From Escherichia phage vB_EcoM_SYGD1: 64,000 nucleotides of DNA. The stretch lies in sequence record MW883059; one strand, written 5' to 3'. Shown here piece after piece: positions 38,649 through 47,989 of this stretch; the stretch's first letter is position 1, and each line of letters opens with the position of its first letter. Made by a program: the position numbers and the translations under genes. The notes beneath the pieces were generated by a model. That model did no database searches and was not told where the DNA came from. It saw nothing but the letters and a program-made list of their open reading frames with translations.

Positions 38649-38660
38649 TTTCACAAAGTT

Positions 38661-38690
38661 GTTTACACGGGGTTTTAGTTGTGATACTAT
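38661..38690 (+). promoter_or_regulatory. T4-type early promoter cassette
   Basis: GTTTAC at 38661, extended -10 tgtgatactat; preceded by AT-rich UP-like tcacaaagtt. Confidence 0.6.
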
Positions 38691-38726
38691 TACCCTATCA
38701 AAACAAATGAGTGATTGGAGAATAAA

Positions 38727-38999
38727 ATGAAAACATTTAAAGAATTTATCAATGAAGCTACTTTTAACGAAAAAGTAAAAATTAGCAAAGCTGTCAAGAC
38801 TTTGATTGCTGACATCAATTACCTATATGATATTGATTTAACTGACTATGTAACAGTTGGTAACAAACGTAACTATTTCGTGTTTGACATCTCTGAACTT
38901 GACCAGAATCAAATTAACAACATTGAGCGTTTTGCTAATGATAGGGGTCTTCGACACGAGCCTGGTGGCTATAAAAAATACGCAATTTATTTAAAATGA
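38727..38999 (+). CDS. internal-protein-like protein with capsid-targeting-like N-terminus
   Basis: ORF track 38715 (TTG); ATG at 38727 after SD ggag; N-terminus MKTFKEFINEA fits the internal-protein targeting peptide consensus. Confidence 0.55.
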   Translation: MKTFKEFINEATFNEKVKISKAVKTLIADINYLYDIDLTDYVTVGNKRNYFVFDISELDQNQINNIERFANDRGLRHEPGGYKKYAIYLK

Positions 39000-39029
39000 G
39001 TTTACTTTTAGATAGGGTAGTGATACTAT
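39000..39029 (+). promoter_or_regulatory. T4-type early promoter cassette
   Basis: GTTTAC at 39000, -10 region tgatactat inside stem AGATA...TATCT. Confidence 0.6.
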
Positions 39030-39059
39030 TATCTCATCAAAATTAATTAGGAAAATAAA

Positions 39060-39371
39060 ATGAAAACATTTAAAGAATTTATCAATGAAGCGGCTGCTGC
39101 ACCAAAGACATTCGTTATTAATACTCAAGCGAGTCTTGATGATGAGTACGCGGAGGCAATTCTGAAGTCACTTGCTAAGAACGGCGTTGAAGTAATTGCT
39201 TCGGACTTTAAGAAAGGGGCTTCCGAGATGTTTATTTCTATAACTAAAGGATCTAAAGCTAAGATTAAATCATCATTCGGAGTTGCTCGTACCGATCAAA
39301 TCGACAATCATGACTTTAAACAAACTGGTGCTAAACGGCAGAATACGATTGCATCACGCGGAATAAAATAG
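39060..39371 (+). CDS. internal-protein-like protein with capsid-targeting-like N-terminus
   Basis: ORF track 103 aa; N-terminus MKTFKEFINEA identical at nucleotide level to the preceding gene for 33 nt. Confidence 0.55.
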   Translation: MKTFKEFINEAAAAPKTFVINTQASLDDEYAEAILKSLAKNGVEVIASDFKKGASEMFISITKGSKAKIKSSFGVARTDQIDNHDFKQTGAKRQNTIASRGIK

Positions 39372-39382
39372 TTTATAAAACC

Positions 39383-39412
39383 GTTTACTTTTAGATGGGG
39401 TAGTGATACTAT
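39383..39412 (+). promoter_or_regulatory. T4-type early promoter cassette
   Basis: GTTTAC at 39383, -10 gtgatactat inside stem GGGTA...TACCC. Confidence 0.6.
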
Positions 39413-39440
39413 TACCCTATCAACTACTGAGGAGAATAAA

Positions 39441-41405: not shown

Positions 41406-41477
41406 GGCCCTGTAGCTGGAAGGTTCAAGCAAGCGACTCATAATCGCCAGATGGTGGTTCAATTCCACCCAGGGCCA
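41406..41477 (+). tRNA. tRNA with CAU anticodon (T4 tRNA-Ile homolog; Met by anticodon alone)
   Basis: acceptor ggccctg/cagggcc, anticodon loop ctCATaa, T-arm ggtgg-ttcaatt-ccacc. Confidence 0.7.
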
Positions 41478-41518: not shown

Positions 41519-42184
41519 ATGTTCCATTACACTTATAAAATAACAAATAAAATTAATAATAAAATCTATATAGGCGCTCATTCTACCGAAAATTTAGATG
41601 ATGGATATATGGGTTCTGGTAAATTATTAAAAAGAGCCCAAGACAAGTATGGTATAGAAAATTTCTCTAAAGAAATATTAGAGTTCTTTGACGATAAAAC
41701 CTCTATGTTTGAGTCAGAAAAGAATATTGTGACTGAAGAGTTTTTAAAGCGCCCTGATGTTTATAATTTGAAATTAGGTGGTGAAGGTGGTTGGGACCAT
41801 TTAAACACTAAAGAATATTTGGATAAAAAGAAAGAAGCTTCCTTAAAAGGGGCTGCTGCTTTTAAAACCAGATTTGAGAACGACCCAGACCTTAAAGAAA
41901 AATATCGTAAAATGGGTTCAGAAAGGTTTAAACAGCTTTGGGATAATCCTAAGTATAGAGAGAAATTTTTAAATATTAAATCTTTATTGGGTAAGACCCA
42001 TACTCCTGAAACTATTAATAAAATGAAAGAATCTCACGCCAGAAATAAACACCAACAGGGCGAAAAGAATTCCCAATTTGGTATGATGTGGATTCATTCA
42101 TTAGATGAAAAAGTTTCTAAACGTATTAAGAAAACTGACCCAATTCCAGAAGGATGGTTTAAAGGTCGAAAAATGAAATTTTAA
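41519..42184 (+). CDS. segB: GIY-YIG homing endonuclease embedded in the tRNA cluster (SegB-like)
   Basis: ORF track 221 aa; TYKITN ... KIYIGAH GIY-YIG motifs; position between tRNA subclusters as T4 segB. Confidence 0.75.
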   Translation: MFHYTYKITNKINNKIYIGAHSTENLDDGYMGSGKLLKRAQDKYGIENFSKEILEFFDDKTSMFESEKNIVTEEFLKRPDVYNLKLGGEGGWDHLNTKEYLDKKKEASLKGAAAFKTRFENDPDLKEKYRKMGSERFKQLWDNPKYREKFLNIKSLLGKTHTPETINKMKESHARNKHQQGEKNSQFGMMWIHSLDEKVSKRIKKTDPIPEGWFKGRKMKF

Positions 42185-42264: not shown

Positions 42265-42582
42265 GACAAGAAACCGGGTCGCTACCGGTAAGTCGTCGGA
42301 CTGATGTTCCCTGGGTAAGGAATTGCGTTAATAAATCTTTATGATTTGTTGATGCCCTCTTACACCACAGCAGAAACGGCGCACCGAATTATCGATTCGA
42401 GGAAATATCTTTGCCGTAAGCCGAGTAGCGTTTTTGACGGAACGTTCGGATATGGTCGAGATATGGCCTTTTAAAAATATTAAGTAGCGTCAACTGCTTA
42501 ATAACCGGGTTCGAATCCCGGCGTTTCGTACAAACACTTGCCTTAGCAGGTGGAACCCCGACAAGGTTGCCGCAAGGCTTTA
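42265..42582 (+). ncRNA. structured non-coding region, probable small stable RNAs (T4 species 1/2 analog)
   Basis: no ORF; GC-richer than surroundings; hairpins (accgg-gtcgct-accggt) and a tRNA-like T-arm ccggg-ttcgaat-cccgg; same position as T4 rnaC/rnaD. Confidence 0.35.
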
Positions 42583-42610
42583 GCCCCGACCGAAAGGTTG
42601 GGGCTTTTTG
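42583..42610 (+). terminator. Intrinsic terminator
   Basis: GCCCCGACC-GAAA-GGTTGGGGC followed by ttttt. Confidence 0.7.
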
Positions 42611-42611
42611 G

Positions 42612-42619
42612 TATAAATA
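42612..42619 (+). promoter_or_regulatory. Late promoter TATAAATA
   Basis: tataaata directly after the terminator, 40 bp upstream of the 42659 ATG. Confidence 0.5.
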
Positions 42620-42658
42620 TAGTAGTATATTAAATCACGAATTAAAACAGGAAATAAG

Positions 42659-43117
42659 ATGAAATCATATGCTCAATTTTTAAATGAAGCATCCGCTTCA
42701 GATGTTCGCGCTGTAGCAACTGCTGCTATTAAAGCTGGTAAATATTCTTATAAAGATGCTTCTGACGAATCTCGGTACAAGTTCTACGACGATATGAGAG
42801 CTGAAGGCTTTGTGGGTAACTATGTTACCACCGCCTGGAAAAGCCTGGTTGCTACTGGTGCGGCTTTCGAAAAACCTTCTGGTAAACCTGCTCCTAAGGC
42901 TGACCCTAAAGCAGCACAAGAAAAAAATATTGCTAAAGGAATTATTTCTAGGTATGAAGCAATTCTTAAAGAACTTTTGGTAATTAAGACCGAAGGCCAG
43001 AAACTTGCGCGAGCTCATAGTTTCAAAGATAACCCACATGCTCATGACCTAGAGTATGTTGAAGATCTCCAAAAAATCATCAAAGACCGCATTTGGTCTG
43101 CTAAACAAATTAAATAA
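42659..43117 (+). CDS. internal-protein-like protein with capsid-targeting-like N-terminus
   Basis: ORF track 152 aa; N-terminus MKSYAQFLNEA; SD aggaaataag. Confidence 0.5.
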   Translation: MKSYAQFLNEASASDVRAVATAAIKAGKYSYKDASDESRYKFYDDMRAEGFVGNYVTTAWKSLVATGAAFEKPSGKPAPKADPKAAQEKNIAKGIISRYEAILKELLVIKTEGQKLARAHSFKDNPHAHDLEYVEDLQKIIKDRIWSAKQIK

Positions 43118-43125
43118 CATTCTTA

Positions 43126-43152
43126 GCCCCAGCCGAAAGGTTGGGGCTTTTG
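43126..43152 (+). terminator. Intrinsic terminator (near-copy of the one at 42583)
   Basis: GCCCCAGCC-GAAA-GGTTGGGGC followed by tttt. Confidence 0.7.
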
Positions 43153-43285
43153 GTATCTAGGCCTTTCTGGACCTCTCTAGGCATCATTTAGTTTATACCC
43201 TTTATAATATATTATCCTATCCTTTAATTGCCCATCCCTGCCCTAGAATTCCCTAAAACTTTTTAAAAATTTTTTTCACAAAACG

Positions 43286-43315
43286 GTTTACATCCCCGTT
43301 CTTCCATGGTACTAT
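43286..43315 (+). promoter_or_regulatory. T4-type early promoter cassette
   Basis: UP-like tttttcacaaaac, GTTTAC at 43286, -10 tggtactatac. Confidence 0.6.
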
Positions 43316-43359
43316 ACAACTATCAACTACTGATACAGAAAAACAACTTGGAGAATGAA

Positions 43360-43623
43360 ATGGATAATTACGGCGAACTGTTCAACTTCTTTATGAAATG
43401 CGTTTCAGAAGATTTCGGTCGTACAGTGAATGATATTAAAGTTATCGGTCCTGATCATCCGATGTTTGAAACTTACGCAGTAATGGGTAATGAAGATGGT
43501 CAGTGGTATACTGTAAAGGTTGTGATTAACATGTTCACTGCTGAAGGTTATGTTAAACTGTCTTCTAAAGTTTACCATGATAATGATGAAATTGCAGAAG
43601 AATATTTCAATAATATGAAATAA
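43360..43623 (+). CDS. hypothetical protein
   Basis: ORF track 43306 would begin upstream of the promoter -10; ATG at 43360 follows SD ggag. Confidence 0.45.
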   Translation: MDNYGELFNFFMKCVSEDFGRTVNDIKVIGPDHPMFETYAVMGNEDGQWYTVKVVINMFTAEGYVKLSSKVYHDNDEIAEEYFNNMK

Positions 43624-43691: not shown

Positions 43692-43868
43692 ATGACTACT
43701 TTAACTATTTGGTTTGACGAAAATGAAGAAACATACTGTGTGAACATTGATGAAAGTCCAATGCCTGACTTTGAATCTTCAGATAAGAAGTCGGTTATAT
43801 CTTGGGCTGAAGGTTATAAAGCAGCAAAAGGCGACGTTAAAATAGTTTATAAACTCTTTGGAGTATAA
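43692..43868 (+). CDS. small hypothetical protein (58 aa)
   Basis: not in ORF track (below 60 aa); ATG with SD cggag 7 nt upstream; hand translation MTTLTIWFDENEETYCVNIDESPMPDF... Confidence 0.35.
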   Translation: MTTLTIWFDENEETYCVNIDESPMPDFESSDKKSVISWAEGYKAAKGDVKIVYKLFGV

Positions 43869-46296: not shown

Positions 46297-46827
<531 letters not shown>

Positions 46828-46831
46828 AGTT

Positions 46832-46862
46832 GTTTACTTTCTCCAAGTAACTGTGATAGTAT
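46832..46862 (+). promoter_or_regulatory. T4-type early promoter cassette
   Basis: GTTTAC at 46832, -10 tgtgatagtat. Confidence 0.55.
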
Positions 46863-46887
46863 ATTCACAGTTACTTGGAGGGATAAA

Positions 46888-47304
46888 ATGACTCGTATTA
46901 ATTTGACTTTAGTATCTGAACTTGCTGATCAACATTTAATCGCAGAATACCGTGAACTGCCGCGTGTTTTTGGTATAGTTCGTAAACATGTTGCAAATGG
47001 TAAGCGGGTTAAAGATTTTAAAATATCTTCCGAGTTTATTTTAGGTTCTGGTCATGTCACGTTCTTTTACGATAAGTTAGAATTTTTGCGAAAGCGTCAA
47101 TCAGACATTATAACGGAATGCTTAAAACGCGGATTCAGTATAAAAGATACTGAAGTTCCTGACATCAGTGATATTCCAGTAGAATGGAAAAATGATTATA
47201 ATCCATGCAAATCAGCTATTAGGTTGAGTCAACAACGACTCGATGAAAAAATTTTAATGAAGCCACACTGGTACAAGTATTACGGCAAAAATATTTACAT
47301 TTAA
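46888..47304 (+). CDS. denV: endonuclease V, pyrimidine dimer DNA glycosylase
   Basis: ORF track 138 aa; [17 protein letters not shown]...WYKYYGK recognisable as T4 DenV. Confidence 0.9.
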
Positions 47305-47401
47305 ATAACATGGGAATAACCTGGACCTCATGATTCTATGAGGGATTCCCGCCAACCTGTAATAAGGTCGAGCCCAAGTGCGGTAATGGGTAAATACAGA
47401 A

Positions 47402-47989
47402 ATGGACAATTCATGCGCCACGGAATGGCCCAAATTTAGAGATAACAAAATGAGAACATTTTTAACTGGTCCTTATCTATCCCTGATGAATGCTTTTACA
47501 CACCATTCTGATGCTAGAGTAGAAGAAATTTGTAAAAACGAATATATCCTGCCATTTGAAGACTTACTTAAGCAGTATTGCACACTTCGACTAGATGGTG
47601 GACGTCAATCCGGTAAATCAATTGCAGTAACTAATTTTGCCGCTAATTGGTTGTATGACGGTGGAACAGTTATTGTTCTTTCTAATACTTCAGCTTATGC
47701 TAAAATTTCTGCAGATAACATCAAAAAGGAATTTTCGCGTTATTCTAATGATGATATACGTTTTCGTTTATTTACTGATTCTGTGCGTAGTTTTATTGGT
47801 AATAAAGGAAGCAAGTTCAGAGGTTTATCTCTTTCGCGAATTTTATATATAATTGATGAGCCTGTCAAATCTCCTGATATGGATAAGATTTATGATGCTC
47901 ATATTGACACTGTACAGTACTGCTGCAATAGTAAATGTTGCATTGGTGGTATTACTCGTCCTCAATTTTTTGTGATTGGAATGCAATGA
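47402..47989 (+). CDS. small P-loop NTPase-like protein
   Basis: ORF track 195 aa; Walker A-like GGRQSGKS and Walker B-like ILYIIDE. Confidence 0.5.
   Translation: MDNSCATEWPKFRDNKMRTFLTGPYLSLMNAFTHHSDARVEEICKNEYILPFEDLLKQYCTLRLDGGRQSGKSIAVTNFAANWLYDGGTVIVLSNTSAYAKISADNIKKEFSRYSNDDIRFRLFTDSVRSFIGNKGSKFRGLSLSRILYIIDEPVKSPDMDKIYDAHIDTVQYCCNSKCCIGGITRPQFFVIGMQ

Follow-up and report, generated by a model that had tools for sequence, protein, structure and literature searches.

Does the interval between the stable-RNA gene rnaC and gene e.8 of T4-like phages hold a gene for a protein that is packaged into the head and injected with the DNA, and is this gene exchanged as a unit? The question is raised by an open reading frame (ORF) in Escherichia phage vB_EcoM_SYGD1 (sequence record MW883059), of which we analysed one stretch of 64,000 nucleotides, called the window below. 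The window belongs to a T4-like phage of the genus Tequatrovirus, and its plus strand corresponds to the minus strand of the T4 reference. An earlier note on this DNA had described the ORF as a capsid-targeting-like gene, driven by a late promoter and bracketed by duplicated terminators. According to our analysis, positions 42580-43156 probably represent a self-contained late cassette, composed of a terminator hairpin, the motif TATAAATA, the gene and a second terminator hairpin, which would encode an injected protein trimmed by the prohead protease gp21 and would be exchangeable through its repeats.

The ORF, which begins MKSYAQFLNEA, was confirmed as a plus-strand frame of 152 amino acids with an ATG start, and is referred to as gene A (Table 1). 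Its ratio of nonsynonymous to synonymous substitution rates (dN/dS) ranges from 0.01 to 0.30. Thus, gene A is a real gene under purifying selection. As proposed, its N-terminus fits the targeting consensus of the T4 internal proteins (IPs), whose leaders read MKTYQEFIAE/A in IPII and IPIII and MKTFKEF...ITE/A in IPI (the slash marks the cleavage site). The leader of gene A agrees with that of IPII and IPIII at M1, K2, Y4, F7, position 8 (I or L), E10 and A11. For IPIII, experiments have shown that targeting depends on leader positions 4 and 7, and processing by the prohead protease on positions 8 and 10 (PMC9026906, summarising Mullaney & Black 1996); gene A retains Y4, F7, L8 and E10. All ORFs of the window were scanned with the leader pattern M-[KR]-x-[YF]-x-x-[FL]-[ILVM]-x-E, and only those at 38727, 39060 and 42659 matched. 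Gene A is thus indeed the third targeting-like gene. The other two lie at the ipI locus and are assigned to PHROGs 7673 and 2667, each of which bears the name 'internal head protein'. Propeptide forms of 10, 11 and 15 residues were found, the longest with two L-N-E/A motifs.

Gene A matches the profile of family PHROG 2280, labelled 'unknown function', over its full length (residues 1-152, E = 2e-53). Full-length matches were likewise obtained for two genes that occupy the rnaC-e.8 site in other phages, gene B (187 amino acids, MKTYAEFLTEA; E = 2.5e-53) and gene C (205 amino acids, MKTYNEFLNESVLNEA; E = 1.4e-59). Outside the leader, the three proteins are only ~25% identical, and BLASTP of the mature regions gave no alignment of A with B and an E value of 3e-4 for A with C. 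All three share an architecture of a helical N-domain, a Pro/Lys/Ala-rich linker and C-terminal helices. Their kinship is therefore deduced from the common PHROG profile and the common architecture. By tblastn, 511 phage records match gene A, 165 match gene B and 144 match gene C, the sets overlapping. Carriers of PHROG 2280 belong to Tequatrovirus, Mosigvirus and their relatives, and the hosts of the matching phages include Klebsiella, Enterobacter, Serratia, Yersinia, Kosakonia, Erwinia and Cronobacter. The annotated features among the listed tblastn matches are all called 'hypothetical protein', and the named members in database clusters are all 'hypothetical' or 'uncharacterized'. The curated record of RB14 assigns the names Ip4 and Ip5 to other genes and describes gene B as 'hypothetical, similar to RB69ORF148c and 149c'. 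When 1.84 billion representatives were searched exhaustively with the profile, no more than 11 proteins emerged, all of them T4-like relatives or chimeras, and no link to cellular proteins; propeptide-like leaders of remote relatives read, for example, MLKFNEFLAE, MKFKEFLIE and MLEYSEFLKE. PHROG 2280 is most likely an unrecognised internal-protein family, located at a further polymorphic internal-protein locus.

Two chimeric database proteins, P0011 and P0012, are deletion products. In one, a tRNA.3-like N-terminus is fused to the 30 C-terminal residues of gene A; in the second, the N-terminus of gene A is fused to the C-terminus of NudE. They indicate large natural or laboratory deletions with an end inside gene A.

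The persistence of the leader bears on the possibility that it is a mere relic and that gene A encodes an ordinary late cytoplasmic protein, which is not packaged. We regard this as very improbable, because the leader has been kept in A, B and C despite their low identity elsewhere, and in the remote relatives as well, and because the functionally critical positions are retained. Moreover, a leader of this kind is expected by chance at about 2e-5 per ORF (our own estimate), yet three occur in the window, two of them in known internal head proteins. The ortholog of gene A in Yersinia phage fD1, g140 (157 amino acids), was listed as particle-associated after liquid chromatography-tandem mass spectrometry of purified virions (PMC8309999 Table S3). 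The list is unselective, which suits the relic explanation: its 113 proteins include DenV, lysozyme and NudE, and the virion detection is therefore supportive but weak.

The predicted mature product has 142 residues, a mass of 15.7 kDa, 19 lysines and an isoelectric point (pI) of 9.4; T4 IPI, IPII and IPIII have pI values of 8.9-9.5. It is thus small and basic, as T4-type internal proteins are. The absence of gene A from T4, T2, PST and RB6 fits the non-essential and variably present nature of internal proteins. Judged from these sequence features, the product of gene A is most likely an internal protein that is packaged and injected. The MKSYAQFLNE leader would direct the 152-residue product into the scaffolding core of the prohead, where gp21, by analogy with the T4 internal proteins, would cut after Glu10 within L-x-E/A. 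The basic mature protein would then stay in the head with the DNA and be injected at the next infection. Its likeliest job, again by analogy, would be to disarm a host defence at DNA entry, as do Ip1, Ip2 and Ip3, each of which inhibits one distinct GmrSD type IV restriction enzyme (PMC12373910).

The AlphaFold model of gene A (mean predicted local distance difference test score 76, N-domain 81-91) is all-helical, with helices at residues 4-25, 36-48, 54-66, 83-119 and 128-149. The mature protein consists of a helical N-domain, the Pro/Lys/Ala-rich linker and a C-terminal helical hairpin. A Foldseek search with the model retrieved nothing beyond chance helical matches from the PDB (best E 0.8), and from BFVD nothing beyond the family to which the protein belongs, so that no function can be read from the fold; Pfam gave no match for gene A. 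The two domains differ in their variability. The N-domain occurs in at least three divergent alleles (dN 0.20-0.36, dN/dS 0.16-0.25), and the C-domain is nearly invariant as a protein (dN/dS 0.01-0.09). Such a contrast would suit a protein with a variable domain for recognition and a second, conserved one, and is no proof of a target.

A packaged protein might also be structural, serving to neutralise or organise the packed DNA or to aid its ejection. The predicted pI, the lysine content and the Pro/Lys/Ala-rich linker would suit this role, internal-protein lysines touch DNA phosphates in T4 heads (PMC3012670), and the low dN/dS of the C-domain is unlike that of a typical arms-race protein. 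On balance, we consider a structural role unlikely. T4, T2, PST and RB6 manage without the gene, and therefore there is no general structural need for it. Furthermore, all three T4 internal proteins have anti-restriction targets (PMC12373910), and the divergent N-domain alleles are swapped between phages.

Two near-identical terminators had been placed at 42583 and 43126. The pair is present, and both members start one base earlier: AGCCCCGACCGAAAGGTTGGGGCTTTT occupies 42582-42608 and AGCCCCAGCCGAAAGGTTGGGGCTTTT occupies 43125-43151. With up to three mismatches allowed, the hairpin pattern occurs only twice in the 64 kb and in none of 100 shuffles. Both hairpins comprise a 10-bp stem, a GAAA (GNRA) loop and a subsequent U-tract, and both score as intrinsic terminators. 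The folding energies are -21.4 kcal/mol for the upstream and -20.6 kcal/mol for the downstream copy (z-scores -3.8 and -4.3). The direct repeat runs past the stem and reads TTAGCCCCnnCCGAAAGGTTGGGGCTTTT(T)GGTAT. We propose that the upstream repeat terminates the tRNA/rnaC unit and, putatively, forms the left recombination handle, and that the downstream repeat would correspondingly terminate the cassette gene and form the right handle.

A late promoter directly behind the upstream terminator, as described in the earlier note, was found as well. The motif TATAAATA abuts the upstream hairpin copy, shares the last three bases of the upstream repeat and lies 39 nucleotides before the ATG. Of 14 occupied sites, 12 have it at an unchanged distance behind the hairpin, and two have the one-mismatch variant AATAAATA. 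The succession of hairpin and TATAAATA is repeated at further late units of the window (25100, 11123/11064 and 5115 on the minus strand). No sigma-70-like promoter was detected on the plus strand between the tRNA genes and the ORF, nor adjoining either hairpin. The upstream hairpin presumably stops early and middle transcripts from the tRNA/stable-RNA unit. If so, gene A would be read only from its own late promoter, and its expression would be exclusively late.

Following the check proposed in the earlier note, both terminators and their flanks were aligned with those of related phages between rnaC and e.8, and the predicted outcome was obtained. T4 is empty and has one hairpin, which is directly followed by TTTTTGGTATCTAAGCC... 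without any gene. The window and RB27 contain, in this order, the hairpin, TTTTTGGTATAAATA with the late promoter, the gene, the second hairpin and TTTTGGTATCTAGGCC... The additional 543 bp of the window and RB27 are bounded by the repeat, and there is no other change. Thus, the 543-bp unit is present or absent exactly between the repeats. The T4 junction falls inside the repeat with no base gained or missing, and the downstream junction of the window, ...GGTATCTAGGCC, runs on exactly like the single copy of T4. A search of the phage collection with the 'empty' T4 junction yielded 672 records, of which an evenly spaced sample of 60 was typed. Only six were uninterrupted across the site, namely T4 (twice), T2, PST, RB6 and phage 132; 22 carried an insert of ~550 bp, and the remainder had larger or different content. 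The empty state of the model phages T4 and T2 is therefore that of a minority.

A survey of 15 genomes, extended to further loci found via the hairpin, revealed zero, one or two cassettes between rnaC and e.8. Gene A stands alone (152-157 amino acids) in the window, RB27, fPS-2, G8 and fD1, and gene B stands alone in RB14; gene A is followed by gene B in Nami and others. JS98-type sites contain a gene for a DUF7338 membrane protein and then gene C, each preceded by its own hairpin-TATAAATA unit. Further configurations are gene A together with the DUF7338 gene, and a 141-amino-acid ORF that has neither a leader nor a late promoter. The DUF7338 protein (PHROG 2143; 184 amino acids; loci L010 and L012 of the JS98 type, L011 and L013) is a predicted membrane protein without a targeting leader, and the site is therefore not exclusive to leader genes. 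We conclude that the rnaC-e.8 interval is a polymorphic locus for genes with a capsid-targeting leader.

The ~35-bp repeats would allow loss, gain or replacement of the unit by homologous recombination in mixed infections. The junctions are observed, and exchange of this kind could account for the different numbers of genes per site. The hairpins vary in a manner that suggests conversion between copies: the loop-proximal variants GA, AG and TT are found at either position, upstream or downstream, depending on the phage, and the stem variants AGGCCC..GGGCCT and AGCCCC..GGGGCT are distributed likewise, independently of position. Since the stem change is compensatory, selection for the stem is suggested. 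The earlier proposal that the terminators are recombination handles is thus supported in two respects, since the junctions of filled and empty sites are exact and hairpin variants have been shuffled between the two positions; the handle role itself we infer, and the hairpin is also a generic terminator.

Signs of recombination are also seen within the unit. In sliding comparisons of the window with RB27, the flanks and the gene body are 96-100% identical and the segment comprising the 5' leader and the propeptide is 60-84% identical; with fPS-2, the flanks and the C-domain reach 98-100% and the N-domain 64-86%. The synonymous divergence (dS) of the N- and C-domains is 1.14 and 0.21 between the window and fPS-2, and 0.04 and 0.74 between the window and Nami, a 5- to 17-fold difference within single pairs. 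The propeptide and 5' leader segment has been exchanged independently. By these comparisons, gene A is itself mosaic.

Alternatively, the hairpins could be two independent terminators, one of the tRNA unit and one of the gene, with gain and loss brought about by illegitimate recombination or through the long flanks formed by rnaC and the e.8 promoter. These flanks are 94-100% identical between phages and provide homology far longer than 35 bp; the same hairpin sequence is found in unrelated phages, and sites with A and B end in a different hairpin. We nevertheless doubt this explanation, because the T4 junction lies exactly within the repeat, the JS98-type sites have a separate hairpin-TATAAATA unit before each cassette, and hairpin variants swap between the two positions. 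In addition, the same logic was shown experimentally for promoter/stem-loop repeats of RB49 and phi1 (PMC2839356). An insertion of the transposon type with target-site duplication was considered and rejected: no transposase or integrase gene lies nearby, and the 'duplication' is a functional terminator that is present as a single copy in T4.

The hairpin AGCCCCTTCCGAAAGGTTGGGGCTTTT was also encountered in viral contigs that lack the rnaC context (L020, L021, L025 and L026), for example upstream of an ORF of 457-460 amino acids. As an identical copy occurs in unrelated phage contigs, the hairpin is a generically good terminator; in such contigs, a strong GNRA-loop terminator could have been adopted convergently or have spread horizontally.

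Together with the breadth of the fD1 list, several points weigh against the cassette reading. The plus strand of the window contains eight copies of TATAAATA where 7.4 are expected, and a chance match was therefore considered. The positional conservation across phages argues otherwise, and since the window-wide counts match expectation, the weight of the motif lies in this conservation only. The difference between filled and empty sites may be an insertion or a deletion, in either direction. The two hairpin copies at the locus could in part reflect convergent use of an efficient terminator, and whole sites could be replaced via the rnaC and e.8-promoter flanks with no role for the hairpin. Finally, the anti-defence role is drawn from analogy, because the mature protein has no Pfam or structural match outside its family.

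Table 1. Features of the rnaC-e.8 interval with their positions in the window
Feature	Position	Strand	Remarks
rnaC (species 1 stable RNA)	42392..42530	+	near-identical to the annotated rnaC of T4 and RB27
Upstream repeat copy	42580..42614	+	stem-loop 42582-42605, U-tract 42606-42610, ends GGTAT
TATAAATA, T4-type late promoter motif (gp55-dependent)	42612..42619	+	from sequence; predicted transcript start ~6-7 nt downstream
Shine-Dalgarno AGGA	42649..42652	+	from sequence; 6 nt before ATG
Cassette gene A	42659..43117	+	152 amino acids, PHROG 2280
Predicted capsid-targeting propeptide MKSYAQFLNE, codons 1-10	42659..42688	+	compared with T4 IPII/IPIII; predicted gp21 cut after E10, L-N-E/A
Downstream repeat copy	43123..43156	+	stem-loop 43125-43148
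e.8 sigma-70-type early promoter, TTTACA-17-TACTAT	43287..43315	+	conserved in T4 and RB27
e.8 homolog	43360..43623	+	87 amino acids, conserved right-hand neighbour

The surroundings of the cassette are those of a T4-like genome. In its DNA, the segment 42400-43350 is closest to Shigella phage SP21535 (99.9%), followed by Escherichia phage LH2 (98.1%). Upstream of the ORF follow, in order, 57A, 57B, two small genes of the ipI locus, homologs of tRNA.4 to tRNA.2, eight tRNA genes, rnaD and rnaC; downstream lie e.8, a short ORF replacing e.7, e.6 to e.2, nudE, e and denV. The targeting-leader gene is thus situated beside the tRNA/stable-RNA region, as the earlier note had it, and more precisely between rnaC and e.8. 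rnaC closes the tRNA/stable-RNA transcription unit and anchors the polymorphic site on its left; the right anchor is the e.8 promoter, which lies outside the cassette. A search of Rfam gave no family for rnaC and none at either hairpin. At the position of e.7, the window has an ORF of 58 amino acids (43692-43868; PHROG 5461; equivalent to RB14ncORF134c and fD1 g138) in place of the e.7 of T4 and RB27, and from ~43630 the identity to RB27, fPS-2 and G8 drops to 30-40%. This is a second replacement polymorphism, ~500 bp downstream of the cassette.

The tRNA cluster is split by a segB-like ORF for a GIY-YIG homing endonuclease (41519-42184), ~400 nucleotides upstream of the cassette; in RB27 and Nami, its place is taken by genes for tRNA-Tyr and tRNA-Asn. 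Homing driven by SegB could carry the neighbouring cassette along by co-conversion. For the tRNA gene at 41406-41477, ARAGORN called tRNA-Met (anticodon CAT). The annotation of T4 gives tRNA-Ile there, as does that of RB14 at the equivalent position, with a note on the anticodon CAU, so that 'Met' probably reflects an artefact of annotation.

At the ipI locus (38655-39430), the ORFs 38727-38999 (90 amino acids) and 39060-39371 (103 amino acids) both start MKTFKEFINEA. Each is preceded by a repeated early-promoter unit, GTTTAC...GTGATACTATTAyCyCATCAA, of which a third copy stands before the next gene; the e.8 promoter (43287-43335) has the same core. Since the promoter unit is repeated before each gene, the ipI-locus cassettes are bracketed by promoter repeats, not terminator repeats. 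The interval between e (46333-46827) and denV (46888-47304) is empty, in agreement with the earlier observation: nothing lies at 46828-46887, neither ipII nor ipIII is found there, and there is no gene between denV and vs.8 (47305-47450) either. Internal-protein genes do occur in the e/denV neighbourhood of fD1 (g129, MKTYQEFITEA, 157 amino acids, labelled 'head protein' and particle-associated) and of RB14 (Ip4), at L015 2786-3259 and L031 839-1312.

The cassette may be part of something larger. Tentatively, PHROG 2280 could represent a large, overlooked family of injected effectors in which the exchangeable N-domain sets the specificity for a defence other than the GmrSD variants hit by Ip1-3. 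The hairpin and late-promoter units would then be the late counterpart of the early-promoter/stem-loop units (PeSLs) and would move effectors between co-infecting phages, possibly helped by SegB co-conversion; that the family went unnoticed would be explained by its absence from T4 and T2. Only three internal proteins of T-even phages have known targets, all in type IV restriction (PMC12373910), and here a family with the same packaging signal is present in most T4-like coliphages and 'hypothetical' in all records checked. PHROG 2280 is thus a candidate source of new anti-defence activity and a candidate explanation of why therapeutic T4-like phages differ in host range. With its precisely matching filled and empty alleles, the site also offers a clear natural case of cassettes being exchanged via short regulatory repeats. 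For practical use, genes for packaged cargo are evidently tolerated when inserted between rnaC and e.8.

Repoila and coworkers reportedly described, in 1994 (EMBO J 13:4181), diverse and polymorphic propeptide-bearing internal proteins of T-even phages, encoded at variable loci with conserved surroundings; these loci are said to be 57B-tRNA.4 (ipI) and e-denV (ipII/ipIII). For T4 itself, internal-protein genes are documented at two loci (PMC12373910). Gene A resembles T4 IPI, IPII and IPIII and the proteins Ip4-Ip13 of other T-even phages in its N-terminal propeptide of ~10 residues ending L/I-x-E/A. Like the T4 proteins, it is small, basic, non-essential and variably present, and forms a single-gene unit with conserved flanks; by analogy, packaging, cleavage by gp21 and injection would be expected. 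It is unlike the other propeptide proteins discussed here in that its mature region has no detectable similarity to theirs, its PHROG differs from those of the ipI-locus proteins, and it belongs to a multi-paralog family of its own with a two-domain architecture. Its site is rnaC-e.8, not the classical 57B-tRNA.4 or e-denV. As fD1 and RB14 also carry an Ip4-type gene beside denV or e, T-even phages have at least three or four internal-protein sites. With Ip1, Ip2 and Ip3, gene A has in common that several distinct propeptide proteins occur per Tequatrovirus phage and that the sets differ between phages (PMC12373910). The GmrSD targets of those proteins are established, and gene A shows no structural similarity to IPI* or to anything outside its own family in the PDB and BFVD by Foldseek.

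The closest parallel in genetic organisation is provided by the PeSL cassettes of RB49 and phi1, whose shuffling, including excised mini-circles, has been demonstrated (PMC2839356). In both systems, a repeated unit of stem-loop terminator and promoter flanks accessory ORFs, and a single unit is present in the empty allele; the mechanism proposed is recombination between the homologous units. The PeSL promoter is of the early sigma-70 type, whereas that of gene A is the late TATAAATA, and the repeat measures ~100 bp in PeSLs and ~35 bp here. Lambdoid morons are likewise single accessory genes with a promoter and terminator of their own, inserted between two conserved genes. They lack conserved repeats at their flanks and presumably spread by illegitimate recombination, whereas here the repeats lie exactly at the junctions. 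Thus, diverse polymorphic internal proteins and the shuffling of regulatory cassettes are already known. PHROG 2280 as an internal-protein family and rnaC-e.8 as an internal-protein locus appear to have gone unrecognised so far, as judged from the RB14 annotation and the 'hypothetical' names, and gene A emerges as a conceptually unsurprising, well-defined, widespread and testable candidate for an injected effector.

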